Source: Phyllosticta citribraziliensis (taxonomy: Eukaryota). Taken from it: DNA of 64,000 nucleotides. The notes beneath the pieces were generated by a model. That model searched no databases and had not been told where the DNA came from. It saw only the letters and a program-made list of their open reading frames with translations. The stretch spans positions 310,001-374,000 of the forward strand of contig NW_027117343.1 of the NCBI RefSeq assembly GCF_038025025.1, in the 5' to 3' direction. The translations under genes were made by a program, and so were the position numbers. This document shows, piece after piece, positions 40,083 to 64,000 of this stretch. Numbering within the stretch: the stretch's first letter is position 1; each line of letters starts with the position of its first letter.

Positions 40083-41152
40083 CTAGGCCGAGCTGGCTCC
40101 CCTGTGATTTCTCAATTGAAAGTTTAGTCCCTCTCCAACTGACACATCCTCCGTTTCGGACGGGTAGAATGAAGCAGTTGAACTGGCTCTTTGGCGTCTT
40201 TGTGCTTGACGCGGAGGCTCTTCAACAGGTTGTCCGAGGACTTTCCTCTTGCCGCTTGTGTCCTCTCTGGACGGCTCCTCCAACTTGTTCACAGCGCGGC
40301 ATTTGGGACATCGCCAGCACTCATCCCGCAGGTAAAGCGTGTAATCCTGATCCTGGAATGAAATGGACGAGCCCACTTTGCACTCCTTGCAGGTCCGGAG
40401 CTGGTCTTTGTTGTTGGCGCCAAACTTGATGATGCTGTCGCGTAGACCCTCAATCTCGCCCAGAAGCCACTTGTAGTCTGGGTCTTTGATCAAGTGGGCC
40501 GGGCCTTTTGAGGCGTATGCGAAGAGAATTTTGAAGAGGGCCTGAGGAAACGAATCCTTTTCATCGTAAAGCATGTCTGTCCATGCCACAAAGAACGTCG
40601 GTTTGAGGCGGTCACGGGGCCCCTGGTTTCCTGCCCAAGATTCTCTGCCCACAGGATCGTCTGGAGGATCGCCAAAGTATGACCAAAACTCGCTAAATAT
40701 CTCATCCAGCGAGTGTCGCACCAACCTGGCCATCTTCAATTTTTTGGCTAAGAAGTACATCACCGTGTGAGCTATGATGGCTTCCTCGTCTTCCAGGGAG
40801 CGGCCGAATGTTTCATTGATTAAGCTCCGGAGATACTCCTGGGGCTTGAAATCGGCCTCCGGCTGATAACAAAAGGCAAGCAACGCCTTTATGGAAGCTG
40901 GATTCGCGTGAACGAGGTTGAGTTGCAGCACAGCACCTGGATTTAGTTCCTAATTTCGTGTGAGAATAAATCCAAGGCTGCAAAAGGGATTGATGTTACC
41001 TGTGAGCAAACTCGCGCAAAAACTTTGGAATGCGCACTGATGATGCTCTTGTGAGCACGGAATTCGGTCCTCTGCGCTGACACGATGACATCCGTGGATT
41101 CCTGCAGGGTGAAGCCACTGTCGAGGAACCTCTTGAGCTCTTCTTGCTGCAT
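40083..41152 (-). CDS. BTB/POZ protein with C-terminal CxxC-CxxC module (array copy 1), 2 exons
   Basis: TDVIVSAQRTEFRAHKSIISAHSKVF, phase-0 intron ...CSQ|GTAACA..TTAG|ELNPGAVLQL, MYFLAKKL, CKEC...CPKC, and KRK tail. Confidence 0.75.
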
Positions 41153-41290
41153 CGTTGAACGTTGAACGTTGATCGTCGGAGAGGTTGAAGGTTGTAGCGG
41201 GAAGAGTGAAGGTTGAAGGTCGGAGGTCGGAGGTTGGAGGCGGAGCGTTGAAGAGTGAAGGTTGACAGTTGGGGTTTAAGGGTTGAGTGT
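41153..41290. repeat. Degenerate heptamer tandem repeats directly upstream of BTB copy 1
   Basis: On the + strand: GTTGAAC GTTGAAC GTTGATC and GTTGAAG GTCGGAG GTCGGAG GTTGGAG. Confidence 0.55.
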
Positions 41291-42172
41291 TGAAGAGCGA
41301 AGCGGAAGGAGGCGAGGAGAGAGAGAGGGATGAAGACGTCGAGAGGTAATGAGGAGGAAAGAGTCGCCTTTTGGCAGTAGTCGTTTGACCGCCAAGCACT
41401 AGTCCACAGCAAGTCTAGCGCCCACGTGCGCAGGCGTCACCAAAGGAAGGCGATGTCTCGCGTCCGCCGCGTCTCTCGGTATGAGTCGCCTTGTTTCCGC
41501 TCTCGTGGCGGACCTGTGCTCTTTCAGAGAAGGCTAAGAGGACCGACGAACAGTGGAATGGGAAGGAAGGGGGGAAAAGTAGATGCACAGCGAAAGAGGG
41601 AAGGGAGGGAGTTGGGTCGAAAGTGAAAGAGGAAGAGGAAGATGAACGCGAAGCCTTCATTTCTTTGTGGGTTACCAGAGGTTAAATAGTCGGAGAGTCG
41701 CCAAGAAAATTTATTCGGAACATGACACCTTTCGCAGCGACACTGCGTACGCACATCTCACGCAAATATGTTGAGACCGGGTTCATACGGACCCGAACTG
41801 AAGACTAGTTGGGGACGAAAAACGACACGGCTATCAGCTCCTGTAACTCACGGATTAAGGTCTGATGTGAGTTGTTGAAACATAGAGACAAGTTGAGCTT
41901 ATTCAATCTTGGGAATGGAACAAGAGCAGTGTTGGGAATCAAATCAATAGGGCCCACACGAAGCTCTCCTTCATGGCTACCCCGGTATATTTTGAGCGCC
42001 AGCTTCTAAAGCAAGACCAGTTCTCCCTTTACAAACGAAAGCAAAAGACTCCATGGGCCCCTCACTCGAAGCAACTCTAACAAACAAGAAAAAGGGAACC
42101 TCCTCCGTCACTTTCTGTGCGCCCGGAAAGTCCACCTCAATTTCTGTTGTAGTTGGTTTTGGAATTTGCGCA

Positions 42173-43160
42173 TCAAGCCTCGGGAATCCTTTTTCGCTTC
42201 GATGCCCTTGGATCTTCAGCTGGTGACGCCTCTGATCTGGTCGGGCAAACAGTGGGGTTGTTCGAGTCATCCAGAGAATTACGGGTCGCGCATCGCGGAC
42301 AGCACCAGGCAAAAGGGCGACTGTTGAGACCATCATTCGGCGAGATCAGCGACATGATACGGCACTTGCTGCATTGGCGATGCTGGCTCGTGAATGTTGC
42401 GATCTGCTCGAGAAGTTCGTCGCGGAAGTCGTCAATATCGTTGACCATGTCTTTGAACTCTCGAGATTTATTGAGGTGGGTGATGTGCTTCGCCGCATAT
42501 CTTAGAGTAATCAGTCGAATACTCTGCCGCGCAGTCGTCTGGAAGATTTCCCTCGCCAATTTCGCGAAAAACGACGGCGAAAGGTTGTCGAAGTAGCTTT
42601 CGTCGCTCGCACAGGGCTTCGAATGATAGTCCTTCATTCCTTTGATGAAGTCCTTCTTTTTGTCCATCAGACCGCGGACTTGATACTTGTCCGCAATCGC
42701 GTACAGGCAAAAGCTGCTCCAGAGTGGCACGAATTTTTCTTCCAGTGTATTCTTGAGTTCGTGGCTCCATTGTGAGCACGCGCGGCCGAAGGAGTCGTCA
42801 TCCAAGTAGCAATACGAAAGCAGAAGCCTGACGAGCTTCGGGTCGTCGTCCTCCATGTTCACGACGCCAGTTCGAGCCTCCTGGGAGGCGAGTTAACACA
42901 CATAATTGTTTTTGGCTGGAGTCGACGCTACCTTGAAGCCCGACTCTGGCCTGCAAGCATTTGTGAAGAAATCCGAGCACCCCGCAAGTACGACTTTGTG
43001 AACGTAGAACGTGTGGTCCTGGCAGTGGATAGTAAGATCCGAGTGATCTTTGAGCTGGAAGCCAGACTCGTGGAATCGTTTGAAATGCGAGCGCGAGACT
43101 GAACAATGAGAGTTAAATTAGCTTTGCAAATAGAGGTGAGAGGCAGTACTTACGCGCCAT
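42173..43160 (-). CDS. BTB/POZ protein with C-terminal CxxC-CxxC module (copy 2), 3 exons
   Basis: 7-nt first exon ATGGCGC|GTAAGT, then HSDLTIHCQDHTFYVHKVVLAGCSDFFTNACRPESGFK|EARTGVVNMEDDDP, LYAIADKYQV, CSKC...CPRC, and KRKR tail. Confidence 0.85.
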
Positions 43161-44359: not shown

Positions 44360-45693
44360 ATGCATTTCACAAACGCCATTTCCTTTCTTCTCATCACAGC
44401 GCTCTGCCGAGCGTCTCCCAACCGACATCGCTACCTTTCTCCCCGTCAACTCGAGACACAGCCTCCCACCGCTGTCACCAATTCCTCATACGCGCCACCC
44501 CTCTACCAAAGCACCGTGTCCAAAACCTAGTCCCCAACGAAGAAGACGACACCAAGTACTACCTGGGCTACCGCGCAGCAGACTTCGCGCGGCCGTACGC
44601 CAAGTATTGGGATCCGAATGTGCAGCCCATAAGCAGCGAGGTTCAGAAGGGACTGAGTTCCAGTCCGTGGGCGAAGCCGCTTGGTAAGCTTGACCAGATG
44701 AGCTGATATGTCTTTGTTTTGCGTGTGGTTTGGCGTTGGCTGATTGGCGCCACCAGCTTTCTCGCCACAAGAAGCCGGTCGCCTGCTCATGCAGCCCGGG
44801 TATCTGCAGATGGAAAACGGGTGGACGGTAGGAGGTGACGGGTCACTGATGATAGCTGTGCGCACCGATATCCCGTCGAGTGAGTTCGTCCTAAAGCACC
44901 ACCGCATCACGCACTTCTCCTTCTTCCTGCTCTTCCCCGTCCTCCAGCTTCCCCAAAAACAACAACAACACTGACACACCGCCCGCGCAGTCTCGGGCGA
45001 AATGTTCGACTGGTGGTTCGGCTGGCACCAGGTCGACTCGGCGCGGTACAAGCTGTTGAACCCCGTAGCGCACCAATACGCGTGGCACTTCCCGGAGCAA
45101 CTGGAGTGGGCCAACACGTCGTCGTACGCGCAGCGCTACATTGGCACATTCTCGCAGATTGACGAGTACATCGGGCAGGACGCCAACAAAATCACCATTG
45201 CCTTTGTCGATCCCAAGGAGCTGGGGTTTGACAGGGAGCGATTTGAGGAGCGCGGCGTCGAGACGGTTGTTGTGGCGCAGATTATCTTTGGTAGGTCTGG
45301 TCTGGTTTTCTTTCAGTATGTTATTTTGAGAGTCGCGGCCGTGATGGGGTTGAGGCGGATGCGTTTGACGAGGAAGTGTCCGCGCTAACGTCCCGCGTCG
45401 ACGGACTGACCGACGGCAGGCCACACCAACTCGACTGATCAGGGCTCCGGCCAGTACCTAGTCCACCAAGTCCGCCGCCTGGACGACGGATCCCGCGAGC
45501 TGCGGTCGCGCTTCTTCCTCAAAATCACCTCGGCGCAAATAGCGCACGACCTGCTTGTGCATTGCAACATTGAGATGCAGCGTAAGTTTCTCGTCCCGGT
45601 CTGCCGCCGTGATCGTCGGGGCTAACTCATTTTTGTGCAGACTTGAATTGCTTCCTGCCCGACTTGTTCAGCGAGTTTAAGGATAGGCTTTGA
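44360..45693 (+). CDS. PhlG-like DAPG/phloretin hydrolase, 5 exons, with an apparent frame break after a signal-peptide-like N-terminus
   Basis: YYLGYRAADFARPYAKYW, PGYLQMENGW, MFDWWFGWH..RYKL.NP.AH, IDEYIG, HQVR...ELRSRFF and HDLLVHCNIEMQ|HLNCFLPDLF. Four canonical introns. Stop TGA at 45691-45693. Confidence 0.78.
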
Positions 45694-46268
45694 GGGCGTG
45701 GTGGATGCTGGATTGTGCCGAGGTGTTGGTCGTCTTCGTCTTTTTCAGTGTATTGCTGTCTTGTGTGATTGACACGTCGGTGTGCATGTTGGCCTTGGAC
45801 GTGAGGCTTGCTACCGTGGCGCGCGAAGGTTACAGAGATTCCCTATCTCCGGCTCTACAGTGGGTGTGAGAGTTTCCAGTTCTGCCGTGTCGCATCCTTC
45901 CGGGCATGACGTGCATTTTGCAAATTGGCTGTATTGTTGACTATCCACCAGCCAGCCCTCTTTTCGCCGAACGTGTGAAATCGTGATATGGATGAGAAAG
46001 AGGGGGACTTATGGATTCTGGATCTCAACAAGGAACCAAAAGACAGCTCGCACCTTACGGGACGTCAGGTTCGTTCATTTATGCCGTTGGAAGCGGGAGA
46101 GCGGAACCATGTGAATCCCCCGCAACAAAGCAGATGCACCATTACTAAACAAAGCAGGCCGCGCCCTATATAAACGCAATCCATGACTTATGAGCTTTTT
46201 TTCAGTGTGAGATAAAAGAAGGAAAAGAGGACAAGAAAAAAAAGGAGAAATATTGTCGAACCGCGAAT

Positions 46269-48587
46269 ATGGTCGCATCCACCAATGGCATCGACGACAT
46301 CATTGTCCGCACACCAACAGACCTGGCAGTCGAATGGCTGCGCGCCAAAACTGGAAACAGCACAATAGAATCCTTCACGTACACGCGCATCGGCACCGGC
46401 CAAGTCAGCGACTGCTACCGCGTTTTCTTCACCCTCACCGACGCCCCTGAGCCGCCGCACCAACAGCAAAACAACCACCAACCACCGACGACTGCGATTC
46501 TCAAAGTGGCATCCGCATCCGCAACATCGCGCCGCGCCAGCACCTTACTGTCGCTGTACGAGCGCGAAGTCCTCTTCTACAACGAACTCGCGCCCGCAAT
46601 CGCCATAAGCGACGCGTCGCCCCTGGCGCACTGCTACCACTCATCATTCCACGCCGACGACGGCTCGTTCTGCCTGCTACTAGGCGACGCAGGAGCGGAT
46701 GCGGTCGTCGGGGACGACATCGCGGGCGCGACTCTCGCGCAGGCGCGCGCGGCCATGGCGGGGCTGGGGCGGCTGCACCGGGTCGGACAGGACGAGCGGC
46801 GCAAGGCCGAGTGGGCGGGCAAGAGCTGGTTTAGACGCGCGCGCCAGATCGAGCAGACACAGTTGCAGGCGCTGTACGGCGGGTTTGTGGAGCGGTTTGG
46901 CGAGCGCGTGGGGTCGAGGGAGAGAGAGGTGTGCGAGCGGCTGGTCGAGGTGTTTGATGTGGTTGATGCGGAAGAGAGGGGAGAGAGCGTGGTGCAGGGG
47001 CTTGTGCATGGCGATTATCGGTTGGATAATATGCTTTTTGCGGCCGAGAAGGGGGGTGTTGGGGAACCGGATAGGGGCGACGGCGAGACGAACGGCCTAC
47101 CCCTGACTGTGGTCGATTGGCAGACTGTCTCCTGGGGCCCGGCCATGGCGGATGTCGCGTACTTCCTCGGCACCGCGCTGACAGTGGACATGCGCCGCCA
47201 ACATGGCGAAGAGCTGTTGCAGACGTACTTTGACGCGCTGGGTCCAGAGGCAGTATTATCGCTGGAGCAGTGCCGCAAAGGCGTCCGCCGCCAGGCCTTC
47301 TACGGCATCGTCATGTCCATCGTGTCGCCAATGCTCGTTGGGCGAACGGAGCGCGGCGATGCGCTGTTCCTCGGGATACTGTCGCGCCACTGCGAACACG
47401 TCCTCGATCTAGGAGCGCTCGACACACTGCCTCAACCACAAGCTGTTCCTGTGCCGCTGGCTCCAGAACCGCAGGACGAACAGCGCCATGAGACGCGACA
47501 AGAAGAATACTGGCAGGAGAGCTGGTATTTTGACTTCATCGACGAGGCGCAGGGTTTGGGTGGTTACATTCGCATCGGCGTGGACGCCAACAGGGGCAAG
47601 ACGTGGTATACCGCCATGCTGTGTGGGCCAGGTAGGCCGACAATAGCTCTTGTCAACTTTGAGGCTCCGGTTCCAACTGGAGAGGATCTTGCCATCAAGA
47701 CGCCGGCGTTTGAAGCTCGCCATACGGTGGTGGAGCCACTTCGACAGTTCTCAATCTCGTTGAGCGGCACGGCGCGAGCGTATGAAGACCCTGCCGTGCT
47801 GCTGCGCGAAGAAGGGAGCCGGGGAAAGGAGCAAGAGCAGGAAGCAGGAGAGCCGGTACATATTCGGCTGAATCTGACATGGCATACGGAGGGCGTGCCG
47901 TATCAATACCGATTGACGACGCGCTACGAGATCCCCTGCAGCGTATCAGGGGACGTCTCAATACTCGCCTCCTCTACATCAAGTTCGCCAGCTACCACAC
48001 AAATCTCCAATGTCCCCGGCCAACGCGACCACTCCTGGGGCTCGCGCGACTGGTGGACGCCACGCTGGGTGTGGAATGCCGCGCATCTGGTCGACGGGAC
48101 GCACATGCACGGCCTGGATCTACTTCTTCCGCCGGGTGGCATGAGGTTGTACGTTGGTTACATTCAGCAGCAGCAATCTTCCTCCGGCGACAATGATCCA
48201 GCAAACGCCGGAGGTGGGAAGATACGTGAGCTTTCCAAGCACTCCGTGAGCGCCACGTTGTTCGACGCACGCGACGAGCTACCCGTGACAGCGGACATCG
48301 AGCTTGAGACTGAGCGAGAGCAAGGGCAACTGTCCAACGCTGAAACTGCCGCCCTCACCCTGCATTTCGAGGCGAAAGGACATGGACCGTTGAGACTGGT
48401 GGATCCCGCTTCGGCCGGTGATATTGACGGTGGAAATGATGCGGCAAACGGCGACGGAAATCCGAAAGCGCGTGTGGCGCTTTTCCCACGGGCTTGGGGT
48501 ACTGTGACTACAGGCGATGGACGACGCGGCGTTGCGTGGATGGAGTGGAACCGGGGTTCAGGAGGCGAGGCGACAGGGGCGGCATGA
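46269..48587 (+). CDS. Intronless APH/EcKinase-like phosphotransferase fused to a C-terminal beta-rich domain
   Basis: RIGTGQVS, ILKV, YEREVLFY, LVHGDYRLDNMLF, VVDWQ and DVAYF. Second domain has WQESWYFDF, GGYIRIG, RYEIPC, GQRDHSWGSRDWW and G.AWMEWN. Confidence 0.85.
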   Translation: MVASTNGIDDIIVRTPTDLAVEWLRAKTGNSTIESFTYTRIGTGQVSDCYRVFFTLTDAPEPPHQQQNNHQPPTTAILKVASASATSRRASTLLSLYEREVLFYNELAPAIAISDASPLAHCYHSSFHADDGSFCLLLGDAGADAVVGDDIAGATLAQARAAMAGLGRLHRVGQDERRKAEWAGKSWFRRARQIEQTQLQALYGGFVERFGERVGSREREVCERLVEVFDVVDAEERGESVVQGLVHGDYRLDNMLFAAEKGGVGEPDRGDGETNGLPLTVVDWQTVSWGPAMADVAYFLGTALTVDMRRQHGEELLQTYFDALGPEAVLSLEQCRKGVRRQAFYGIVMSIVSPMLVGRTERGDALFLGILSRHCEHVLDLGALDTLPQPQAVPVPLAPEPQDEQRHETRQEEYWQESWYFDFIDEAQGLGGYIRIGVDANRGKTWYTAMLCGPGRPTIALVNFEAPVPTGEDLAIKTPAFEARHTVVEPLRQFSISLSGTARAYEDPAVLLREEGSRGKEQEQEAGEPVHIRLNLTWHTEGVPYQYRLTTRYEIPCSVSGDVSILASSTSSSPATTQISNVPGQRDHSWGSRDWWTPRWVWNAAHLVDGTHMHGLDLLLPPGGMRLYVGYIQQQQSSSGDNDPANAGGGKIRELSKHSVSATLFDARDELPVTADIELETEREQGQLSNAETAALTLHFEAKGHGPLRLVDPASAGDIDGGNDAANGDGNPKARVALFPRAWGTVTTGDGRRGVAWMEWNRGSGGEATGAA

Positions 48588-48798
48588 GAATCCCAGGAGA
48601 CGGGTTGCATCCGAGGCGGAGTTGGATGCGCCGTCTGAGGTCGTAGCGCAACTGTGGAAGTGAAAGAATGCTCTGAGCACAGAAGTGGCGTCAAACAACA
48701 GCTCCCAAAGCGCCGCCGCAGTGTTACTAGACTCCAGCTGGGAGATTCCGGAACATCCCAGAAAGGCAGACGAGTAGATTTCAAGAATGAGCAAAGAC

Positions 48799-49875
48799 CT
48801 AGCCCTGAGAGCTAGAACAGCGTTGCCTTTTACGATGATTCCCCTCCTCTTCCTCTTCCTCTTCCGATTCAGATTCAGATTCCGGGTCCTCCGACTCCGA
48901 CTCGTCAGCCATCGACTTGCTCCACTCATCCACACAGTATTCATTCTCACTGGTGAATTTCGGACACGTCACGACCATCACACCTTTCCAAAAATCTCCC
49001 TCCCACGCCTGATCATTTTCTCTTCTGCAGCGCGGACAACAACGTTTCTGGATCTCGAAGTGCGTCGAAAACCTTGCGAAGCCATCCCAGAAGCCGTCGA
49101 TCACGTCCATATGCGACCAAAAATGCGACGACTTCAACAACTCATGAAGGTAAGTCTTAGTGAAAAAATATATCAGGTTGCGAAGAGCCGTGGCCGAATC
49201 AGGAGTCGTCTCGAAGACGTATTTGGCGAGGATTGGGAGACCGACTTTTCGGCGAGGGTATCTTTTGGGGTCTTTCTTGTCCAGCTCAAACCACGCCGTC
49301 AAAGTGCTCTCGAAGCGTTCTGCGGCGTGTTTCTGCACGACGGGTGCTTGGTATTTGTCCCCCAGTGCGTACAATTCGGCGAAGCAATGTAGCTCTGCTT
49401 CGTACTCAGGAAGATCAGAATGGTGGGCTTTCATGAACTTCTCGCAGGCCATATTGTTTGAGTACAGAGTTTCGAGCATGAGCATAACCATGAAGGCGTG
49501 ACCATCAAGGTTGATGCGCCTCCTAACAGATTCTCAGCACTGAGATCCTCAAGGATTCGGGGATTACCTGCCACAAACGGCGAATCGGGCTTGCAGGCGT
49601 TGGCAAAGAAGTCGGATTGCAGACAGACAATCATTTTGTGGACATAGAACTCGACATGCTCGACTTCTTTGGCATCTTCGTCCGTGTGCTTAAATTTACA
49701 CCGGATGGTGAGATCACTGTACCGCTCCTCTTTGAAGCGGCTTTTTGAGAACTCGTGCAGACCACGTGAGAGTTTTGGGTCGACTGAAACAGAAGCGTTT
49801 CCACAGCATGATTTGGGACGTGATGGAGTTACCAGGCCTTTCGTCCGTGTCCCGTGCAACCCATCGTGGAGGCAT
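48799..49875 (-). CDS. BTB/POZ protein with C-terminal Cys module (copy 3); splice junction 2 doubtful, possibly disabled
   Basis: MPPRW..RP|VDPKLSRG...RYSDLTIRC...FYVHKMIVCLQSDFFANACKPDSPFV, then LYALGDKYQ, FETTPDS..LRNL, DGFW, CPRC, and an acidic plus RKRQR tail. Confidence 0.7.
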
Positions 49876-50425
49876 CGCTGGTGACAGTCAAGTATGACTT
49901 GCTCAAGGGTTTGGAGGAAAGCGAGAGTTTGAAGACAATAGGGCGCCACCTGGAATTGGTGCTGTGACGGGTGATGATGCGCAAACAATGGAGTAAAAGA
50001 GGCGATAAAAAGATGCTGAAAAGAATGACTGCAAGGCGCGCGTCGGCGCTAATCCGAAATTGCGACCACTCCCCGCCGTGTGCAACCACCAGCCACCTCT
50101 GGTGACCGGGTCGACAAAGTCGTGCCACACAAAATTTTGGATGTCCACACAATGAAGATTGAGTATCTCGGATTGCCATTCCGTATGAATACTTGAATCC
50201 TCTTTGGTCACAGCCACTAGGTATCTTGGAAGACAAATTGAATACTTCCCATTAACTACTGCCTATCATCTCTCTTTTGTTTTGTGTCGAAGCATCACTC
50301 TTTGCGCCGACACAGCCGCAGCAAGACGAAGTTGAAGAAATACAAGCAAACTTGTTCAGGTGGATACGCGCCAAGGTCGATGAACTGAAGTTTGTTCGAC
50401 GCGAGGTCAGCCCACTGGAACATGT

Positions 50426-51444
50426 TCATATGTCGTGCCCGTCCGCATCACTCGGACCGCGCCGCCTCTTGCGAGGATTCCCGTCTTGCATTTGAGCTGT
50501 TCCATTGGCCGGCTTCGCGCCCTCTTCGTCTGGACAGACCCACCTGTCGACCGGGGAGCTTCTCTGACAAAAGTCCATGGGACAATGCATGAGCATTTCG
50601 CCATCGACAAATTTCCCAGTGTGTTGGATCGGCGTGGTCTCTCCGCACTCTGGACACGTCCGACGGCAACGCAAGAGAAAAGTGAGCCAGTTCGCGTAGC
50701 CGCTCCAGAAACCATCGACGTGTTTCATTTCTGACTGGAATCGCGGAGACGCCATGAGGGTGGATAGGTTTGCGTTGGTTTGACTGAAGACGATGTTGCG
50801 GAGTCTGATTCGGGAGTGGTTTCGAAGACTCTTTTGATGACTTCGATGAAGCAGCTTATGGAGATACCATCTTCTTCATGGCCAATGACCGGGTCTACGT
50901 CTTCAAAGATTTGATGGAAGTCTTTTGCCGCGTGGGTCTTGACGTTCTTGGCCTGGTATTTGTCCGCAATGGCGTACAGCTCGACATCGCAGAGTATCAT
51001 GGCTTCTTGCTCAGGCAAACCCGGGAAAAGCTTGTCCTCGCATTCTACGTATTCCAAGCGCTCGCAGTACATTAAGTCCAGAAAATATCGGATGACGTAC
51101 GGATTGTCGTCGAGATTGACAATGCCTGTCTTTGCTTCCTAGTAAAACACTTTAGCGATAGCCCGTTGGAACCCCACTCAAGCTCAACCCACCATGAAAG
51201 GAGAATCTGGCTTGCACATGTTGGCAAAGAACTCTGATTGCAGGCAAACAATCATCTTATGTACGTGGTACTCTTTGTACTCGCCGGAAACTTCATCTTT
51301 ACAGCGGATTGTAAGATCACTGTACAATCTTGATGAATATAACTCTCTCGAGGAGTTGCAGAGGCCAGTTGTAAGATCTACAGCGCGTTAGAAAAGCATT
51401 GGTCCGTGAGGGTAGTTGAAACCTTTTTTCTCGCTCCACTCCAT
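50426..51444 (-). pseudogene. BTB/POZ + Cys-module paralog (copy 4) with a frameshift near 50803
   Basis: MEWSEKK|D...YSDLTIRC...HVHKMIVCLQSEFFANMCKPDSPFM|EAKTG...LYAIADKYQ...FETTPESD. The homologous continuation LRNIVF...DGFW...CPEC...RKRRR lies in a different frame. Confidence 0.75.
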
Positions 51445-52130: not shown

Positions 52131-53065
52131 TTAAGCAGGTTTGTTCCAGTCATCGAGCGAGCTGAACTCCTTGCAGCTGTCAACCAGACACAACATGCCC
52201 AAGACGCCCTCCTTAAACATTATGTCGTCGGACCCGTTGGTGGCAGGCTGCTCACATTCCGGGCAAGCGCGCTTTCTCTTGATGCAAAAGCTGAGGTAGC
52301 GCGCGTAGCTGCTCTAGAAGCCATCGACGCCGTTGATTTCCGCGTGGAACTGCGCCGTGTCCATTAAGAGCTTGAAGTGCTTCTTCATGTAGCAGTAGAT
52401 GAGGTTGCGAAGGGTCTGTTCAGAGTCAGGCATTGTTGTGAAAACGGTGTTGGCGACGTGAACAAAACTTGCAATGCTGATAGCCCCAGGTCGATTTGAT
52501 TTCAGTTTAACGCTGGCCGCCTCTAAACGCATGGTGACGGCTCCGGCCAAATGGACTTTTACATGCATTGCCTGATATTTGTCCGCAAGCAAATACACCA
52601 TGGCGTAGCAAACAACTGCTGCTTCTTCGCTTGGGACGTAGGGAGAGAAATGTTGGAGCTCTATAGGGAGAACAGTTTTCACATAACGCGTGTAGAACAA
52701 CATTAGCAAAAGTGAAATAAGAAACGCATTGTCATTAAGTATAATAACACCAGTCCTCGCTTCCTAGCCAAAGTCAGCAACTCTGTTAGAGACGGAGCGG
52801 TGCTAGACAAACTACAAAAGGGGAGTCAGGCTTGTAAGCATTGGTGAAGAACTCCAACTGCAGACAGACGACTAATTTATAGACGTAGAATTCTTTTACT
52901 TCGCTAGAGGAATGGTCTTTGCAACGGATTGTAAGGTCACTGTATAATTGTAACTGAAATCCATCTTGTAAGATTTCCTAGAGGCTTTGGTAGAAATCTT
53001 GGGGACGTTAGTATTGATCAGTCCTGCTAGGAATGGCACAAACTAGGGCCAATTTGCCGTTCCAT
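52131..53065 (-). pseudogene. BTB/POZ + Cys-module paralog (copy 5) with RIP-like transitions and premature stops
   Basis: YSDLTIRC...FYVYKLVVCLQLEFFTNAYKPDSPFV|EARTG, VYLLADKYQ, DGF*SSYARY...CPEC. TAG at 52978-52980 and 52314-52316. TpA-rich 5' half. Confidence 0.82.
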
Positions 53066-53662
53066 GCTGGCTGTGACAACAGGTCCCCCAAGATATTGCT
53101 GTAAAAGCAAAGATGCAAGACTAATACGCGTGAGTTTGCGAGTTGGCTGTTGAAGACACTGTAGAGGCAGCTGACAGTGAAGTGCAAGCTTCTAAGTAAC
53201 TAAGAAGGCACCATGGAAGCTGCTGCCCTTTTATGCTGGCTTGAATTGCTGCGTTTGTATGAGTGTCAGCAGAGTTCAGAGGATGTCTGGGAAAGATGGA
53301 GCTTCCAACTGGGGGTGCGCTGTAAGTGCGCATGGATGCGCCCACACTAGACCCGAATGGGACCCTTGCTTCCATGACAGCAAATGACTAAAACAATGTT
53401 TCTCTGACTTTAACACTGATCAAAGACAATGATAGAAAACTACCATCTAAATGTGAAGTCCTAGATGATTCAACAGCCGGGAAATGGCAAGCAAGACGGA
53501 GACTTGGACCAACACAATCAAAACAAATGAAGATGTGAGATAAAGAGAGATGCTAAATGAATGTAACATTTTAAAAGCAAAGTAGTAAACAGTCATCAAC
53601 ATTTCGTTCATCATCAGACAGGCGCAGGGCCAACCACGCCTACAGCGCCTCGCCAACAAATG

Positions 53663-54869
53663 TCAACCAATGCTCATGCGCGCAATGGTAACATGATCAT
53701 TAGCGCGCTCCTCCTCCTCAGCCTCATCCCTCACAATACTCTCGGCCCAATGCTTCAACGGGAAGGTCTCGCGGCAATTCATGCAACGGCCGAGCATCTC
53801 CCCACCGATGGTCTCAGGCTGCATCTCGCACAAAAACTCGACGCGGCAGTTGGTGCAGCGATACTTCTTGCCGACGTACGGCGCGCTGTACTCCATCAGC
53901 TCGCGCCAGAAGCCCGGCGTGCGGTCGGCCGTGTCCTTGAACGTGTCGTCCTCCATCAGCTCCTGGATGTGCTCGCGGCAGATGCTGAAGATGGAGCTGC
54001 GCAGCCACCGGTCCGACGCCGGGATCGGCTTGAGGATGCGCCACAGGATGAGCGGGAACCCGCGCCATGCGTTTTGGTGCCGTGCTTGCGCGATGAATTT
54101 GGCCCATGCCAGCTTTTTGAGCTCCATGACGCGGTACTTTTCGGCTAGCACGTAGATTTCGACGTGGAAGACGAGCTCTGCTGCGGTGTTAGGAGCGTGA
54201 GCTGTGACGGGGGCCTTGCATGACATTACCTTGGTATGGCGGCAGCTGGTCAAAGTGTGGGATGTCTTCGATCCTGTAATCGTATGTGTAGAAGAAATGT
54301 ATCATAGCTGACCTAAACATCAGCAAAGCGCTCAACCACACGTTTACCCAAAGCTACACACCCGTGACATGGTCAAGATTGTCCTCCTCGCCGAGATCAA
54401 TAACGGCAGGACAAACGCTCGCATCCTAAACTCGTTGGCACGCTGCTTGAGCAAGAGAAAAGGGACAAAGGCATACTTACCGCAGACGACGGCGCCTGTC
54501 TGCACGCGCTGGCGAAGTACCCGCTCTGCAAGCAGATGACTACGCGGTGGACGTGGAACTCGCGCCCCTGACAGCGCAGCGTCAGGTCGGTGTACAGGTT
54601 GTTTGTGAAGCCGTAGTCCAGGAAACTGGCGGTGTGTCAGCAAAAGCGTGCATACAGGCGCCATCAACAAAGAAAACACCAACGCATCAAGAGCGAGAGA
54701 GAGGCAGACGAATGACTCGAACCAAAACACAGCACACAAAAAGCTAAACGTACCCTCTGAGTCCGTTTTTGAACTCGGGGTTCATCTCCTGCGAGAAGCG
54801 GAGCGACTCGTCAAGCGACGGCACCGAGTTCCTAAAGGACGAGGCGCGCGAGTTTCTGCTCAGCGACAT
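53663..54869 (-). CDS. BTB/POZ protein with C-terminal CxxC-CxxC module (copy 6), about 5 exons
   Basis: MSLSRNS...GLRG|FLDYGFTNNLYTDLTLRCQGREFHVHRVVICLQSGYF, AMIHFFYTYDY, FHVEIYVLAEKY, SDRWLR, PGFW and CTNC...CMNC...W. Confidence 0.8.
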
Positions 54870-56601
54870 GATGATTGATTGGCGTCGTCGTCGTCAAGTC
54901 GTCGTCCCGGTCCCTCGTTTCAAACTTGGTCGGTGTGTGCGTCGGTCTGGAAAGGAAAGATCTGCCGACGGAAGCTGGACAGCGGGGAGACCAGACAGAG
55001 GCGATGAATGGCGACGCAGGCTGAAACGGGAAGGACGAGGCGCACAGCAGGAGACCCTGTATCAGGTGGTGTCTGGGGAAGCGCTTTTTTGATGAATTGA
55101 TGACGACGGACGGGGTCCAGGAGTCGATAAAACGCTGTCTGTCTGTCTGTCGGTGTGCATGGCGTGCACGGCCGGCTAAACATAGGGGTGCGTGCCCGGG
55201 CGCTGCGCTGCTTTATCGATACATGACTGAGTTGGTTGGCACGGTGGAAAGAGTGGGGGCTGCTACGTTGCACCTCGGTCGGTGCTTTGGCGTTTGGTGG
55301 AGAGGTTGGCTGGCCATGATGCAAAGCAGCTGGTTGCGAGTTGGGCCGGAGCGTGTTGGGAGCCGTGTGGTGAGTTGTCGCGTTTGCTGCGATGGATAGA
55401 TGCTAGAGTTGTGTACATAGGCGAGGTTGCGATGGAGGCAGGCAGCTGCTGTCTGCACTCATGTCAATCTCCACGGATGCCATGGAAATCATGTACAAGG
55501 TAGATCAGACGATCGACAAACTCACCTCTGTCAATCGGTTAACCGCTCAGTGACAAGGCCTTCGAATAGGTGAAGGATGGATGCATCCAGCTGCTGAAGA
55601 ATAAGAGGCTGAGCTCCATAAATGGAAGCTGTCATCTCGTCTGAGCTCTCATCATCATTGCCTATCCAAATCGCAGAATGCACGGTATTTCCAACAGTCA
55701 AGTCTAGAAACAAAAGTACGTCGAAGCAAGACGTTGGCCGTGGACCACGGGGCGGAACATCAATAACGCAGACCCTTAGGTTCCTTTGTGTAACCTTAAC
55801 CAGCAGGCAGCCCTTGAGCGCCTCAGTGCTCCAGTCAGCGGCGGCGGTGCCAGGCCGTCAGCCAGCAGCTCGGCCTCGGACATAAGCCTCTTGCGATCGC
55901 AGCCCACGCTCTCGGTCTTAAAGCTCACCAACCACAGCGACTCCACGGCCTCGGGGCCAGACTGGGGTGTGTAAAGACCGAGACAGCCAGCAGGCAGCAG
56001 AAAGAGTCATGTATTGGCACGTGGCGGGGCTGGGTGGCAGCCACGGACGACACGGTGAGAGTTTTTAAGAAGAGGGAGTGCTCCGCCATGATGACCGAGT
56101 GGCATCGACAGAGCACACAGCATACGCAACGAACGAACAGAGTTGACAGACTCATCACCTTTATTTCTCTTTCGACAAACGCAAAAAGATCTTAGTCCAA
56201 GTGTATCAAGACAGGACCCAAAAGGAAAAGAAAGAAAAAAACGCCATGCGAGCGATCCATCCATCGCTTCAACCCCCTAAAACGCCGCTGTATCCCTCTT
56301 TTTGAGAAGCGTGCCTCGCTCCCTCGCAACGGTGCAGTGCCATGCGCAGAACTACTACCACCAGCCAAAGAGAGACGCAAAAAAGGAAATGAATCGATCG
56401 ACAACCTGAAAATGCTCAGGACGAGTCCCGTACGACCATGCAAACTCTAGACCGCATATGCGCCGATATGTGGACGATCAGGAAAATGAGATAATGGATA
56501 CTTTGTACAACGTGCAGAGTCTAGCGCACGTAAACGGTGAGGGCCGAGAAACGGTACGGTCCATCTTGGGTCGGCGGCCACGAGGTACTGGACTGGCAAG
56601 T

Positions 56602-58646: not shown

Positions 58647-60949
58647 GGCGACGGTAGCTGGAGCGAACCGGGTCGGGGTGCGAAGAGGCGCGAGGGCTGT
58701 TCAACGGCCATGTCAGTAATGGTGACGATTGGGAAAGGTTTCGGGCGATGGATGCGCGTCGGGCTCGGGGGCGCACGACGCGGTGGTGTGGTGGGTGTCG
58801 AGGGGTGCGGCTCACTTATCAGATCAAATTTCGTCAGAGGCTTCGAGAGGGCAATGCCGGCGCAAGAACCAAACAGAACAGCTCGGCGCGCCAGCAAACG
58901 AGACGCGGAGGACAACACGGTGGATGGGAGTGCGGGAGAGGAGGTGGTGGGGTGGGCGGTCTAGAAGTAGAGGCTGGAAGGAGAAGAGGTCGTCGACGAG
59001 GGTGGGTGGGAGTGGAAAGGATGGAAATGGGATGGACGGGAGCGCAGTGTTGAGTGGCGGTGATGGATTACGGTAGCAGCTGGAGCCCGAGGCTTGGCCA
59101 CCAAACACTCTGCCGGTCTTCGGATCTGCTCTCGGCAAGCCCCCCCTGCTACACGCCCGTGTCGATGACTTCTTGACTGGCGGCACTCTCGACGGCTGTG
59201 GGCGCTCGCGTTTTGTCTTCCGGCGGGGTGAGGTCGGGAGCTTTTTTTCCTGCAATGCACCACTTCTGCCTCTCCAAAGCGTCTGTGGGCGATTGTTAAG
59301 CCCGCAGCTGTGGGCTGACGGCTGACGGTCACAAAGCAATCATCAATCACGCAATCATCACCTCTGGCAATGTAGCGACTCGGCGCCGTATTGTCGTGTT
59401 CGACGCAGGTACACGCCCGCGGTCCTTTGCCCTTCACACCTCTTGTCAGATTGATTGCGCCGCGTGTCATGGCCACAAACACTCAGCTCGAACTGACCAT
59501 GCTCAATGCTGCGGCTCTCGCCGAGCACCATAGTCCCCCTTTTCCTAAACGAGGTTTTCATCAGATAACCTCCACGTCAATTTTCGCCCTCGCCTCGCAG
59601 CCCCCACTTGGCGCGCCCTGTCTGACTCGGCCTTCCTCCACATTTCCAGAACTCTGTCAATTCCCAAGGTTTGGCCCCGGAGCCGCGACCTTCCTTTGTG
59701 CGTTCCGTTCGTTCCAGTCTTGTGACAGTCGCCACCCTGGCTTATCTCAGGATCTAGCCGCCTTCATCAGATAGCAATTCCAGCTGCCCAACAAAGACCG
59801 GACTGCATCTCCCTCGACTTCCGCTCATCCCTCTTGCCGGCTTGGCAGTTGACACAGAGATTCCCCCACATTTCCTTGGCCACCTGCTGTTTTGACGGCT
59901 CTCGTCCGCGGCACAAACGACACTACTCATATGTCGCTCGCAGTCGCGTGCATGTCGGCGGCATGTTTCATTGGCCCTGCACTTTTCTGCCGTCTTCAGG
60001 CAATCTAACCAATTCCACCGACGCCACGGAGAAGCTCGGAATTCGAGCGGGCGACCAAGCTGGATATCGCGTCCCGATGTCGGCCCATTTCCGTGCCTCG
60101 GGATTGCGGGCGAGTGCGACAGCCAGCCTGAGCTGGTGACGGGATGCTCGTGTTCCTCACCACCCCTCTGACCTCAACTCGCAGAGCCATCGCCATCTCA
60201 TCGTCTCCTGAGAATCGAAACCTACAACTTGTGTGGATTCCACTTGTCGATCCGCGCTGATCAACTCGGGAATCGTCGCCTTGCGGAGGCGGCCAGCATT
60301 GCGCGACTCCACGTCATCCTAGCTGATCTTCGCTTCGAGAAGACCTATTCGTTGCAGGTTCTGGCAGCATGTTGGGATTCATGCACACAAGTGGAAACCT
60401 GAGGCGGTGAGACTGGTCGCCAGCAGCATCCTTAAATTCCTGTCCGTTCCCGTTCTGTCTCACGGCCATGATGCAAAACCGCGTCAGTTACATCTTCTCC
60501 GAGCTTCTACCAAGGCCAAGGAAGAGTGTCTTTCCTTTTGTCCACCGACGCGCAGCTTCCATGGCACTTCGCAAGTGTTGTTTACCATCACCACGTCCGT
60601 GTCATGGATAGATTGGCCCTCTCTCATGTCTGTTTCCAATTTGCATGGGCATCGCGTGGGCGCTGCGTGTCGACGGTCGGGCGCTAGTCTGTATCCAGAA
60701 GGCGGGGTCACTCCCTTCGATTCCTCACCCTCATCGACTCCGGCTCGAGTCCTCAACAGTCATACTGTACAAGCCGCTAACCAATGAGGCAAACAACCGT
60801 CTGTCTCAACACGGCCTCGCGCGGCTGCATCGTCGCTAGACCTCGTCCATCTCCTGCTTACTCCTGTCTCCCTTCCTCACCACCCAACCTCGCACCCACT
60901 TCCAATTGACCCGCTTATCCTGCATATCGCCGTCTGAGCCCAACGCACC

Positions 60950-62315
60950 ATGGCCCGTCAAATCAGAAACGATCCAGTGGCAAAACTCATGAACAACCTC
61001 ACAAAGTCAGTCTGCGGATTCGGCCATGCTCGGCACTGCTTGTGAGGGCCCGTTGGACAAACTGACAAACATTAGATTCTACAAGTCGGGCGAGCACTCG
61101 GACATGACGCTCAAGTCCAAAGACGGCAAAGAACACAAGGTTCACCAGATAATTCTACGCGCTCAGTCAGGCTTCTTTGACCGTGCGTTTGATTCAAAAT
61201 CCACCTGGAAGGTATCTAGCCTTGCTCGTCTTTCTCATCCCTTTCGCATCACGTGAAGTCTTCTATCCCTTCTTGAACATGATCGACGTCGGGAAGTTAG
61301 ACTCTTGAGGATCATGTTAATGCTTTTGGGTCCGCAGGAATCGAAGGTAGGCGAAATGGAGCTCTTCAATGATGCCCCCGAGAATATCCAAGCCATGATC
61401 GACTGGATGTACACATTTTCGTACGAGTCCCCAGCACACTTGACGTCGCGGCAAGAACGCACCCTATTCCACGTCCAGATGTATGCAATGGGAGACATTT
61501 ACGACGCGACTCCCCTCAAAGACCTGGCCGCCAGAAATTTCGACACCGACGTGGACCACCGCGCCGAGCTTTTCCCTGAAACTGTGCGCGCAGTATACGC
61601 AACCACGCCCCCGTCTGATCGAGGACTCAGAGACCGCGTACTGCGGGTATGCGCAGCCAACGTTGCCGAGCTCCTTGGAAGCAACAGCAACAGCGGCAGC
61701 AACACCAACAACAATGCCAACACCTCCGCATCCATCTCAACCGAATCGACCATCAGGAAGCACAACTTCCGAGGCAGAGGGAGAAAGTACACGGCAAGAA
61801 CCCCGCAAAGCGTCAAAAGCGCCACCGAGCCCGCCGCCCCCGTGTCGATCCCCTCCAAGGCCGAATTCTCCATCATGATGGACGAGCTGGGCGTCTTCGG
61901 CCGCGAACTCACCACCTTCATCGCCTTTAGCTCGCCCGCGTGGCCGTCGTCCTCGGACGCAGCCCTCGGCGGCTCCATCCTCGTGCAGCGCTACCGCTGC
62001 GGCGTCTGCCGCAAACTGTGCGGCATGGAGCTGCCGGCGACGACGGGCGGCGCAGCCGACAACGACCAGCTCATCTCCTGCATGTACTGCCAGGCGGGCT
62101 TCAGCCCCAACAATTGGCGTAGCCGCCGTGCGGGACCCGGCGAGGGCCCGGATGAGCCGCTCGATGACCACATGGCTGGCTCGTCGCTTCTTGATGATAG
62201 CGCTGCTGTCCGGGCGCCGCCACTGGAGCGCGCTGATGTCGGGAGTACCGCTGGTGAGAACGGGAGCTTTGGCGGGTGGCGAGTTGGGTCGTCGCCGGCG
62301 CCTGCAATCTGGTGA
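60950..62315 (+). CDS. BTB/POZ protein with C-terminal CxxC-CxxC module (copy 7), 3 exons
   Basis: MARQIRND...|FYKSGEHSDMTLKSKDGKEHKVHQIILRAQSGFF...WK|ESKVG, FHVQMYAMGDIY, VYATTPPSDRGLR, an N/S-rich insert, and CGVC...CMYC...W. Confidence 0.85.
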
Positions 62316-63076
62316 GTGGAGGCTGAAGATCTTGTACATACACTGTATCTGTGCTGAAACTTTCGCGAGCTCGATCAACATTCTGTGATAGGGAACGATA
62401 TTGGAGTTCTGGAGAAATCAGTCTCGGGGAAGGTATGCAGTATATAGTCTTTAATTTTGGGATCGTATTTCACGTACGACCATAGCACGTGGAGAACTCG
62501 GAACCCCGTCCGCTCTTCCATAGATAAGCCACGTTGTGGCCGATTAGTAGTTGCGTGGGTGACCAGCAGCGAATCCCGGCTGTCGTACGTTTTGTCTTTT
62601 TTTGCTTCAACTTGACAGCCAGAAGAAAGCAACACTTTGAACGCTTCTTGTGCGTTGGTAGGAGGGAGACGTTTTGCCTAGTATTGTTCAAGTGACTATT
62701 TGAGTTTAGCGTTGGCGCGGTGCGCGTCTTCCCGCCCTTCTTCCCTGCGCGTCGTTTGGCAACGGAGCTCCGCCTCTCTCCATTTTGATTGAATCGAGCT
62801 GCGTTCCCACGTGCACTTCCGGCTCTTTACATGCGTGCTCCCATCTTGTTTTCTCAACGTTGCTCTCGCTCTCTCTATCTCCAATTCTGTGGGTTGGCTC
62901 GGGAAACGCCGACAGCTCCCGCAGCGAGTTTTCGTCTGCTCGGAAGCTTGCGCGTCCACGCCTGGCGGCTTCTCCCATGCTCTGAACGCGAAGGCGTATG
63001 ATTCCGACAAGTATTCGACACGATGACCGAGATAGTGCCAGGATCATCATTGAAAGGACCCGGTTCGGAATATGAC

Positions 63077-64000
63077 ATGGAATGGATTAAGAGAGTCGGT
63101 AAGTCTACCCTTCCAAAAAGCCCAGTCGAGCTCTGCTAACGCCAACCAGACTTCGCGAAGAGCCTTTGTGGTTTCGCAAAGGACGGCTTCCAGGCGAAGC
63201 TATACAGTGATCTCACGATCCGCTGCCAGGACAAGGAGTTCTACGTCCACAAGATGGTGCTTTGCTGCCAGTCGGAGTTCTTCGCCAACGCCTGCAAGCC
63301 GGACTCGCCGTTCGTGGTAAGCAGAACCCACCACCGTTTGCATTTTCTTCCATTTCTGAAAATAAGAGCTAGGAAGCGAGAACGGGCATCATCACTCTCG
63401 ACGAAGACGACCCGTTCATAGTCCAGCTGATGCTGGACTCGTTCTACGCCGACGGGTACGACTTCCAAGACCAGGCAGAGCAGCGCTTCCAGCCTCTGCC
63501 GCAGGTAGAGGCCATGGCGCTCTCTGACGTCTTGCTGTACGCCATGGCCGAGAAGTATCGCGCGCACCACGTCAAAAGCCACGCCGTGAACAATTTTCGC
63601 ATGTGCCTGGATCGCGAGAAATTGCCCCCGATCAAAGAGGACGACCGCAAGCCTCTGAGTGTGGCGAGCATCGTACGCCTCGCTACCAAGATTTTCGAGA
63701 CGACGCCCGATTCGGATCGCCGACTCCGCAACCTCATGTACCTCTACGTCAAAAACAACTTCTCCCGCCTCATGAATCGGTCGCGCTTTGAGGCCGACAT
63801 GGACAAGGTCGAAGGCTTCTGGAGAGGCTACGCGCGCTTCCTTGCCTTTTTCCTGGAGCTGGACCGCGTGTGTCCGAAATGCTCGTTGAAGGTTGGGACG
63901 TCGTTCGAGGGGAGGTTCCAAGATGGCTTCATGCTCATGCAGTGTTTTTACTGCCAGGCACGTCTTCCAGTCGACGAGTGGGAGCAGCCCGTTGACGATG
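63077..64000 (+). CDS. BTB/POZ protein with CxxC-CxxC module (copy 8), truncated by the window end; alternative in-frame start at 63023
   Basis: MEWIKRV|DFAKS...YSDLTIRCQDKEFYVHKMVLCCQSEFFANACKPDSPFV|EARTGIITLDEDDP, LYAMAEKY, FETTPDSDRRLRNL, EGFW and CPKC...CFYC...DEW. Confidence 0.88.

Follow-up and report, generated by a model that had tools for sequence, protein, structure and literature searches.

The last 24 kb of a 64,000-nucleotide stretch of Phyllosticta citribraziliensis DNA (contig NW_027117343.1; the whole stretch is called the window below, and positions are counted from its first letter) carry a cluster of genes encoding BTB-domain proteins that end in a four-cysteine module. This array is a syntenic cluster of paralogs of one Pezizomycotina family, and we consider it somewhat likely that its products are BTB proteins of the Cullin-3 (Cul3)-adaptor type, in which a conserved ligase-side scaffold is joined to a variable C-terminal surface and whose genes undergo birth and death at unequal rates. 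We read it as an ordinary birth-and-death cluster of putative adaptors, whose C-terminal module is undescribed.

To delimit the family, eight of its proteins were compared with the window by tblastn, and exactly eight loci were matched, all within 40,170-63,999 and none in 1-40,000, in agreement with the eight paralogs in 24 kb counted by a first-pass annotation made from the letters of the sequence. The start and stop positions given by that annotation are also those of our gene models for c1, c2, c4, c6, c7 and c8. Its wording "genes or pseudogenes" can now be made precise: the count of eight loci stands, c3, c4 and c5 are disabled and the other five are intact. Gene models were built from stop-to-stop open reading frames (ORFs), three-frame translations and a search for GT..AG introns between anchored exons; the fraction of G+C in the window is 0.49-0.64. 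The eight copies are as follows, each with the intron found at a homologous site and the four-Cys module (helix plus ribbon).

c1, 40083..41152, minus strand: two exons (41152-41000, 40949-40083), conceptual product of 339 amino acids, ORF intact; homologous intron 40950-40999; four-Cys module 40263-40466.
c2, 42173..43160, minus strand: three exons (43160-43154, 43098-42932, 42880-42173), 293 amino acids, ORF intact; homologous intron 42881-42931; four-Cys module 42251-42448.
c3, 48799..49875, minus strand: transcribed pseudogene; homologous intron 49523-49571; four-Cys module 48904-49113.
c4, 50426..51444, minus strand: transcribed, correctly spliced and frameshifted; homologous intron 51139-51192; four-Cys module 50522-50731.
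c5, 52131..53065, minus strand: pseudogene; homologous intron 52764-52812; four-Cys module 52134-52313.
c6, 53663..54869, minus strand: five exons, 305 amino acids, conserved member, ORF intact; homologous intron 54426-54480; four-Cys module 53729-53932.
c7, 60950..62315, plus strand: three exons, 389 amino acids, a low-complexity insert preceding the ribbon, ORF intact; homologous intron 61212-61337; four-Cys module 61875-62135.
c8, 63023..64000, plus strand: three exons, 325 amino acids, leaving the window at residue 290, ORF intact; homologous intron 63317-63372; four-Cys module 63796..63999 (alignment A4).

The commonest layout is a tiny first exon, a BTB exon, a phase-0 intron and a single large last exon. 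As previously described, the phase-0 intron is common to all eight copies, lying at a homologous site after PF[VMK] and before EA.TG, and the motifs YA.ADKY, TTP.SD..LR and GFW, together with the C-terminal four-Cys module, are common to the copies. The shared start of the BTB part is likewise real, although the consensus proposed for it (SDLTI.C..F.VHK) is departed from in c1, c6 and c7. The window paralogs are 17-39% identical to c8, a divergence too great for comparing their rates by codons. Three models are identical to deposited proteins, namely c2 (P0001), c6 (P0170) and c8 (P0005, which extends 35 residues past the window end); for c1, the deposited P0049 spans only the last 225 amino acids of the model.

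The array probably continues beyond the window end, since c8 runs off it and since further members share contigs with one another and with the window: in the second strain P0008 and P0020 lie on one contig, and the 90%-identity cluster of P0020 includes P0178, which is on the same contig as the window, as P0008 probably is. Three more P. citribraziliensis members (P0037, P0032, P0057) are adjacent to each other on a different contig, and the members named in this species besides the eight window copies number at least five, none of them matching the window at 60% identity or above.

The presence of a BTB domain was verified with Pfam. With a cut-off of 20.5 bits, PF00651 passed for the BTB exons of six of the eight copies (25.5 bits for c1), c3 reached 15.5 bits, below the cut-off, and c5 gave no match. 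Eight full-length proteins were also scanned (c2, c6, c8, the c1 ortholog P0044, the c7 relative P0190, P0178, P0043 and P0113), and the BTB family passed in all of them with 32-53.5 bits (52.5 bits for c2). No other Pfam family exceeded its cut-off in these proteins, the C-terminal half being uncovered; zf-C2H2 matched none of the eight, and the scan gave no MATH, Kelch or similar substrate-binding domain, the ribbon being the sole extra module. Family proteins have about 250-390 amino acids and often carry an acidic stretch and a basic KR.R cluster after the ribbon, the latter being found in the last 70 residues of 34 of the 66 relatives in alignment A3 (66 rows, 64 of them pre-selected by a C-terminal CxxC...C..C pattern) and also in c1-c4 and c8. 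From sequence, a nuclear location of the family members is predicted.

The AlphaFold2 model of c8, computed with A3 as the alignment, has a mean predicted local distance difference test score (pLDDT) of 87.3 and a predicted TM-score (pTM) of 0.81, and consists of an N-terminal helix (16-36), a BTB core (about 47-142), a helical bundle reaching to residue 239 and four strands (244-280). Its best Foldseek match in the PDB is the BTB/3-box part of SPOP (4j8z, E 2.8e-6, TMt 0.73), followed by KBTBD2/4, KLHL11 and vaccinia A55; 67 PDB matches were obtained at E<=0.001 and all among the matches listed are BTB proteins. With VIA-align, the model superposes on full-length SPOP with Z 13.3 over 181-193 residues (model 6-247 on SPOP 171-365), on NPR1 with Z 13.2 over 200 residues (model 17-242, 10% identity), on the BTB-BACK part of vaccinia A55 bound to Cul3 with Z 11.9 (A55 residues 1-182) and on KBTBD2 in the CUL3 complex with Z 11.8 (KBTBD2 residues 7-190), the plain BTB domains of BTB-zinc finger (BTB-ZF) proteins giving Z of about 10.6-11.3 over about 110-125 residues. 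By these matches the middle third of the modelled protein is a 3-box/BACK-like bundle, and the ribbon is the only extra part. The motif TTP.SD..LR, conserved in A3 at T192 (57/66), D196 (51/66), L199 (57/66) and R200 (60/66), occupies in the model the end of helix 178-191 plus the loop to helix 198-209; judged by position, it may be the counterpart of the 3-box contact region of KLHL3. A prediction of two copies of c8 (residues 10-290) as a homodimer gave a score of 0.00, which is no verdict and counts as evidence for neither side.

The contact with Cul3 was then considered at the level of the phi-x-E motif, scored as a hydrophobic residue and a Glu at the motif columns of A3. In a comparison of the A3 profile with PDB sequences, the family consensus "spFkEaktgvieL" aligns with "heMeEskknrveI" of SPOP and "gqFsEsrsgrveM" of KLHL11, and the motif is kept in 55 of the 66 A3 rows. 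In the window it is present in five copies (c2 FKE, c4 FME, c5 FVE, c7 WKE, c8 FVE), and c3 has it in the part that precedes its frameshift. In KLHL3 the hydrophobic residue of phi-x-E buries the most surface against Cul3 and the substitution E85A abolishes binding (PMC3616122). Neurospora crassa Cul3 interacts with a BTB protein (PMC3349749), indicating that the Cul3-BTB pathway is present in this fungal group.

The C-terminal CxxC...CxxC-like module announced by the first-pass annotation was recovered in all eight copies. Its cysteines read CSKC...CPRC in c2 and CPKC...CFYC in c8, and the second knuckle is loosened (CxxxxC) in c4 and c5 and degenerate (Cx9C) in c3. In the c8 model the strands are 244-247, 254-257, 267-271 and 278-280, and the hairpin turns carry Cys 248/251 and 272/275, a predicted layout which is that of a zinc ribbon with putative zinc binding. 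Folded alone, the ribbon has a pLDDT of 76.6. Nothing in the PDB was matched by it at E<=0.001 with Foldseek (best E 0.4), the non-significant rows including the RBR RING2/IBR, the zinc domain of the ATCase regulatory chain, rubredoxin and NrdR, and the best VIA-align score against 48,161 chains was Z 4.5.

Evidence for transcription came from the assembled contigs of two public runs, X1 and X2, compared over 20 kb from which c1 and c2 are excluded; neither run is recorded as RNA, their RNA character being deduced from the spliced contigs, and contig depths were not used for ranking genes. Spliced contigs with 0 mismatches lie over c3, c4, c6, c7 and c8, and the homologous intron is thereby confirmed in c3, c4, c6 and c7. 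Both introns of c4 (51378-51422 and 51139-51192) are spliced in an RNA contig, as are, in both X1 and X2, four introns of c6 (54626-54753, 54426-54480, 54308-54361, 54178-54229) and two of c7 (61006-61075, 61212-61337); intron 1 of c8 (63098-63148) is also found in an RNA contig. No splice joint of c5 is among those listed for the X1/X2 contigs. An alternative 3' intron of c7 (62311-62368, plus strand) was seen in X2 only and changes the end of the protein from "...APAIW*" to "...APAICSINIL*"; P0190, a transcript-derived relative of c7, has an end of the same style as this alternative form. The c6 transcript contig (53115-55526, minus strand) runs about 550 nucleotides past the stop and far upstream of the ATG, with an extra intron at 55453-55525; it thus reaches well beyond both ends of the coding sequence, indicating long untranslated regions (UTRs), and the 3' UTR extends into the presumed promoter region of the dead c5.

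The three disabled copies differ in their lesions. In c3, a 49-nucleotide GC-AG intron (49523-49571) is spliced in an RNA contig which is otherwise collinear with the DNA over 45990-49972, with 0 differences. The splice joins "...KPDSPFV" to "EAHQP*", the remainder ("RRINLDGH...") being in a different frame; as the frame is set by the length of the skip, the exact position of the cut is irrelevant. The P. citrichinensis ortholog P0009 is in frame at the site of this lesion: PFVEARTGVINLD. In addition, c3 has no in-frame ATG unless an intron absent from the RNA contig is assumed. A first model of c3, with a 49-nucleotide first intron and an in-frame 56-nucleotide GTTTGT intron, was dropped because the RNA contig shows neither, the first intron proposed earlier being left unspliced in it. 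In c4, a frameshift lies near 50804-50808, between "TTPESD" and "LRNIVF", and the frame that begins at the ATG stops after 206 amino acids, excluding GFW and the ribbon. This is no assembly error, since an unbroken, mismatch-free stretch of the RNA contig spans 50234-51137, and the P. citrichinensis ortholog P0035 is in frame across the site. The c5 copy has no clean start; the near-invariant His of "VHK" and the conserved BTB Cys are changed to Tyr, and a TGG>TAG change at 52314-52316 falls within GFW. Its TpA/ApT ratio is 0.98, against 0.42-0.63 in the other copies. Private changes were counted at the sites where the other three copies of the subclade formed by c3, c4, c5 and c8 agree, and the ratio of C>T/G>A changes to the reverse changes was 26:8 in c5, 10:10 in c8, 13:10 in c4 and 17:14 in c3. 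Classical repeat-induced point mutation (RIP) is not supported, the composite indices being negative in all copies and TpA/ApT raised in c5 only; at the sequence level the excess of transitions in c5 hints at a RIP-like or AT-biased decay.

To place the copies in the family, a quick maximum-likelihood search was run on 42 rows, of which 32 are from Phyllosticta. The copies c3, c4, c5 and c8 fall into a Phyllosticta-only clade of 12 rows (SH-like approximate likelihood ratio test, SH-aLRT, 99), in which c3, c4 and c8 each pair with their own P. citrichinensis ortholog. The copies c1 and c2 group (support 91) with a P. capitalensis protein, again each with its own ortholog, and c6 and c7 lie beyond a split (SH-aLRT 98), grouped with proteins of other genera. 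The local clade on which the first-pass annotation had relied is therefore not seen: the eight copies do not form one group, and the approximately unbiased (AU) test rejects them as one clade (p 4.7e-5), a rejection which is trivial since sister-species orthologs interleave. With a one-to-one P. citrichinensis ortholog for each of c1, c2, c3, c4 and c8, no species-specific duplication is seen.

Identities to P. citrichinensis are very unequal: c1 82% (P0044, 255 columns), c2 59% (P0002), c3 83% (P0009), c4 67% (P0035), c8 83% (P0006) and c6 98.8-100% on the compared exons; c8 is moreover 49% identical to a second ortholog, P0007, and P0190 and P0029, both transcript-derived, are 88% identical to c7. 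The c6 protein falls into one 90%-identity cluster with proteins from five Phyllosticta species, its last exon being 97.7-100% identical among the named members and 95.4% in one contig fragment. One-to-one conserved orthologs, which had been named beforehand as evidence against diversification, are thus found in part (c6, 97.7-100%) and within one genus only. One neighbouring gene, a kinase-like (EcKL-type) gene inside the array that is 87% identical to its P. citrichinensis counterpart, served as the control for rates. To judge by protein identity, c2 is clearly fast and c6 unusually slow relative to this control; c4 is fast as well, although dead in this genome. The deposited sequences of c2, c6 and c8 each occur on two contigs, the c6 accessions coming from both sequenced strains; as they are identical on the two, no polymorphism is visible (n=2).

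The earlier proposal of a variable C-terminal part is strengthened by the comparison of ortholog pairs, in which the ribbon is the most changed part of c2, c3 and c8: its identity, relative to that of the rest, is 73 vs 89-94% in c8, 76 vs 84-85% in c3 and 38 vs 63-66% in c2. In c1, c6 and c7, all parts of the protein are conserved in the compared pairs. Within the 12-row clade, the column entropy is 1.23 bits for the BTB core, 1.55 for the helical extension, 1.88 for the ribbon and 2.08 for the ribbon loop. More locally, it is 0.66-0.97 in the first half of the BTB domain and 0.76 in TTPDSDRRLR, and reaches 2.48 at residues 111-120 and 2.1-2.3 at residues 151-180.

The spread of the family was searched with a profile of ten family rows (A2) against 1.84 billion representatives. 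The 50%-identity clusters matched were 11,741 at E<=1e-3, 2,757 at E<=1e-10 and 116 at E<=1e-30, most of the weaker matches presumably sharing only the BTB part, and 64 of the 119 listed matches of 200-400 amino acids have the C-terminal CxxC...C..C pattern. The ten best matches looked up are all from Phyllosticta. Distant relatives bearing the ribbon were found in Lasiodiplodia, Diplodia, Neofusicoccum, Aplosporella, a Phaeosphaeriaceae species, Rhizodiscina, Aspergillus steynii and Arachnomyces. The same architecture being present in Botryosphaeriales, Pleosporales and Eurotiomycetes, the locus is not lineage-specific as first supposed, and these eight genera or groups outside Phyllosticta indicate an old family, widespread in Pezizomycotina. 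The order of accessions suggests similar clusters in P. capitalensis (two groups about 30 genes apart), P. citrichinensis and P. citriasiana, and Diplodia intermedia has two members on one 50 kb contig. In the ESM Atlas, the C-terminal half of c8 and c6 matched only Ascomycota clusters named "hypothetical" or "BTB domain-containing protein". No paper on a fungal family combining BTB, a BACK-like bundle and a zinc ribbon, or on a role for it, was found in a search outside which subscription journals and supplements lay. Passing mentions come from two tables, one of infection-induced genes in nematode-trapping fungi, with a BTB row (PMC3828140), and one of expanded families in a Dothideomycete, with a BTB orthogroup (PMC11412873).

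Taken together, these data are in agreement with the following scheme. The members with phi-x-E (c2, c7, c8 and relatives) would, by homology, serve Cullin-3 RING ubiquitin ligases as substrate adaptors, gripping Cul3 through the conserved BTB/3-box face and the target through the variable helical loops together with the ribbon surface. Birth and death would proceed unequally, c3, c4, c5 and c8 representing a presumed Phyllosticta-only expansion of which three members are already disabled in this genome, and c7 looks like an old lineage. The c6 copy may have another role, since it has no Cul3 motif and is nearly frozen across the genus. The same parts are met in SPOP, KLHL3/11, KBTBD2/4 and A55, with an N-terminal helix before the BTB domain, phi-x-E in the alpha3-beta4 loop and a 3-box/BACK-like bundle, and the SPOP-type and BTB-BACK adaptors superpose on the c8 model with Z 11.4-13.3 over about 180-190 residues at 14-18% identity. 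Unlike the SPOP and KLHL adaptors, the family has no MATH or Kelch domain, its only extra part is the C4 ribbon of about 40 residues, and its Cul3 binding is putative. The BTB domain and helical bundle superpose on NPR1 as well as on SPOP, which is a resemblance of fold only, NPR1 having ankyrin repeats and a salicylate-binding domain after the bundle.

Several points weigh against this scheme. Neither c1 (SQE) nor c6 (ADA) has phi-x-E, so that an adaptor function cannot extend to all copies; the Cullin-3 adaptor claim of the first-pass annotation accordingly holds for the structural type (BTB, 3-box/BACK-like bundle, phi-x-E in five of eight) and is not supported for these two. The part available for binding a target, a 40-residue ribbon and helical loops, is small in comparison with MATH or Kelch. 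The Cys columns are kept in 66, 65, 65 and 66 of the 66 A3 rows, an invariance that is partly built in because 64 of these rows were pre-selected by a Cys-pattern regular expression. The tree comes from a quick search, and although the split that sets c6 and c7 with other genera has an SH-aLRT of 98, the grouping of all 32 Phyllosticta rows as one clade, at a cost of 16.5 log-likelihood units, is not rejected by the AU test (p 0.0545), so that these two lineages may or may not predate the genus. The RNA contigs give no expression levels, rare in-frame isoforms of c3 are possible, and c1, c2 and c5 are without RNA support. Finally, relative to the single control gene, the protein identities of c1, c3 and c8 correspond to ordinary rates. 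The rapid diversification described for the locus is thus retained for the fast c2 and for the loss of three copies out of eight, and abandoned for c1, c3 and c8, which are ordinary, and for c6, which is nearly invariant.

The last observation leads to the explanation that comes closest to our own in likelihood: whatever their molecular role, the paralogs would be dispensable and in part redundant, and would change by neutral "genomic drift" without adaptive diversification, a process put forward for F-box genes of plants (PMC3030570). Disabled copies make up three of the eight, and two of them are still transcribed, the fastest copy pairs include that of the pseudogene c4, c5 shows an AT-biased decay, and c1, c3 and c8 diverge about as much as the neighbouring non-BTB gene, so that neutral turnover explains much of the observed pattern. 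It accounts less well for c2, an intact copy with the same sequence on two contigs whose identity to its ortholog is nevertheless only 59% (38% in the ribbon), and for the four Cys, TTP.SD..LR and the BTB core, which are conserved while surfaces change and thereby point to a continued constraint on a scaffold. As a full account of the locus, drift is a serious possibility, to which we give rather less than even chances. A role outside ubiquitin ligases would make the proteins nuclear BTB and zinc-finger regulators, in which the BTB domain serves for oligomerisation or for contact with a co-repressor and the ribbon binds nucleic acid or chromatin. BTB-ZF proteins are typically without phi-x-E, as c1 and c6 are. 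The A3 profile also matches BTB-ZF proteins in the PDB (the Miz-1/NAC1 fusion 4u2n at E 5e-19, BCL6, Kaiso, ZBTB7A), the KR.R cluster is frequent, and the fold rows of the ribbon, all non-significant, include NrdR and other nucleic-acid-linked ribbons. Like animal BTB-ZF factors, the family combines an N-terminal BTB domain with a C-terminal part predicted to bind zinc; it differs from them in having one short C4 ribbon instead of C2H2 arrays, with Pfam giving BTB only, in its BACK-like bundle, and in the phi-x-E retained by most members (55 of the 66 relatives). The best matches of the whole model are moreover BTB-3-box-BACK adaptors over about 180-200 residues and not the BTB-ZF domains of about 120 residues. 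For the family as a whole such a role seems unlikely, and it is a live alternative especially for c1 and c6.

The first-pass annotation had preferred a diversifying recognition repertoire, comparable to the MATH-BTB expansions of nematodes and grasses, in which the variable C-terminal half of Cul3 adaptors would follow targets that are non-self or evolve fast, of mycovirus, transposon or host origin. This idea fits the combination of a variable ribbon and nearby loops with a conserved Cul3-type face, the greater speed of c2 (59%) and c4 (67%) relative to the neighbouring gene (87%), and the pseudogenes and tandem layout expected of birth and death; lineage-specific BTB expansions are also known elsewhere (PMC1257465, PMC4091423). 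However, the tree shows no recent duplicate and pairs every copy that has a near relative with a one-to-one sister-species ortholog, c2, c6 and c8 show no polymorphism on two contigs (n=2), c1, c3 and c8 diverge about like the control, c6 is nearly invariant, and among the 23 large ORFs scanned there were no NLR, HET or RNA interference genes and no transposon or virus remnants. We therefore regard it as improbable, the general pattern being all that speaks for a defence role. The same small credence is given to its narrower form, a long shot in which the subclade of c3, c4, c5 and c8, perhaps with c2, would consist of fast-turnover nuclear Cul3 adaptors whose hypervariable ribbon would recognise rapidly changing proteins of mycoviruses or transposons, or plant-derived ones encountered on citrus in endophytic or pathogenic growth, c6 being a non-ligase partner or regulator; if true, the BTB-BACK-ribbon family would correspond in fungi to the MATH-BTB repertoire of nematodes. 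In the literature, BTB expansions limited to single lineages are on record (PMC1257465, PMC4091423), the standard BTB architectures have been surveyed (PMC1257465), and F-box, BTB and RING families are expanded in Agaricomycetes (PMC10282164). With the MATH-BTB expansions of Caenorhabditis and grasses and the BTB/POZ expansions of Agaricomycetes, as these sources present them, our cluster shares tandem divergent paralogs, a conserved BTB domain, a variable partner part and gene death. It differs from the MATH-BTB expansions in carrying a zinc ribbon and not MATH on the target side, in its modest size (eight plus at least five more) and in the age of its duplications.

Filamentous ascomycetes encode a great number of hypothetical "BTB domain-containing" proteins. 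The cluster offers, with RNA-backed models, a compact natural series that runs from a frozen copy through old and fast ones to fresh pseudogenes, and it lends itself to the questions of which surface binds targets and whether the proteins feed Cul3. Should the ribbon serve in target recognition, this would define a new Pfam-type domain together with a large class of fungal ligase adaptors; if not, the locus would be a well-annotated example of ordinary birth-and-death evolution.

Upstream of the array lie genes for a kinase and for YEATS, WD40, AMP-binding, 2OG oxygenase and SYF2 proteins. Three non-BTB genes are interleaved with the copies, namely a 2,4-diacetylphloroglucinol (DAPG)-hydrolase-like ORF, the intronless EcKL/APH-type gene used above as control and an FAD/NAD reductase. 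The features located between copies are the following.

44975-45388, plus strand: piece of a DAPG hydrolase PhlG-like ORF (Pfam PF18089, E 4e-26), between c2 and the EcKL-type gene.
46269-48587, plus strand: EcKL/APH-type gene, intronless, 772 amino acids, with EcKL/APH, DUF7065 and DUF7064 domains.
62472-62591, plus strand: dispersed 5S rRNA gene (Rfam RF00001, 81.4 bits), between c7 and c8.

One RNA contig (45990-49972) spans both the EcKL-type gene on the plus strand and c3 on the minus strand, indicating that these convergent units overlap or abut at their 3' ends. The EcKL-type protein is 87% identical to its P. citrichinensis counterpart and 66% identical to a protein of another contig, and no P. 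capitalensis protein is among its best 120 matches listed. The next matches, at 44-47%, are one fungus (Rhizodiscina) and many proteins of Mycobacterium, Mycolicibacterium or metagenomes, making this gene inside the array a candidate for transfer from a bacterium to a fungus. The 5S rRNA gene explains the very high contig depth between c7 and c8, and other 5S copies are the probable source of the two variant letters at 62530 and 62533.

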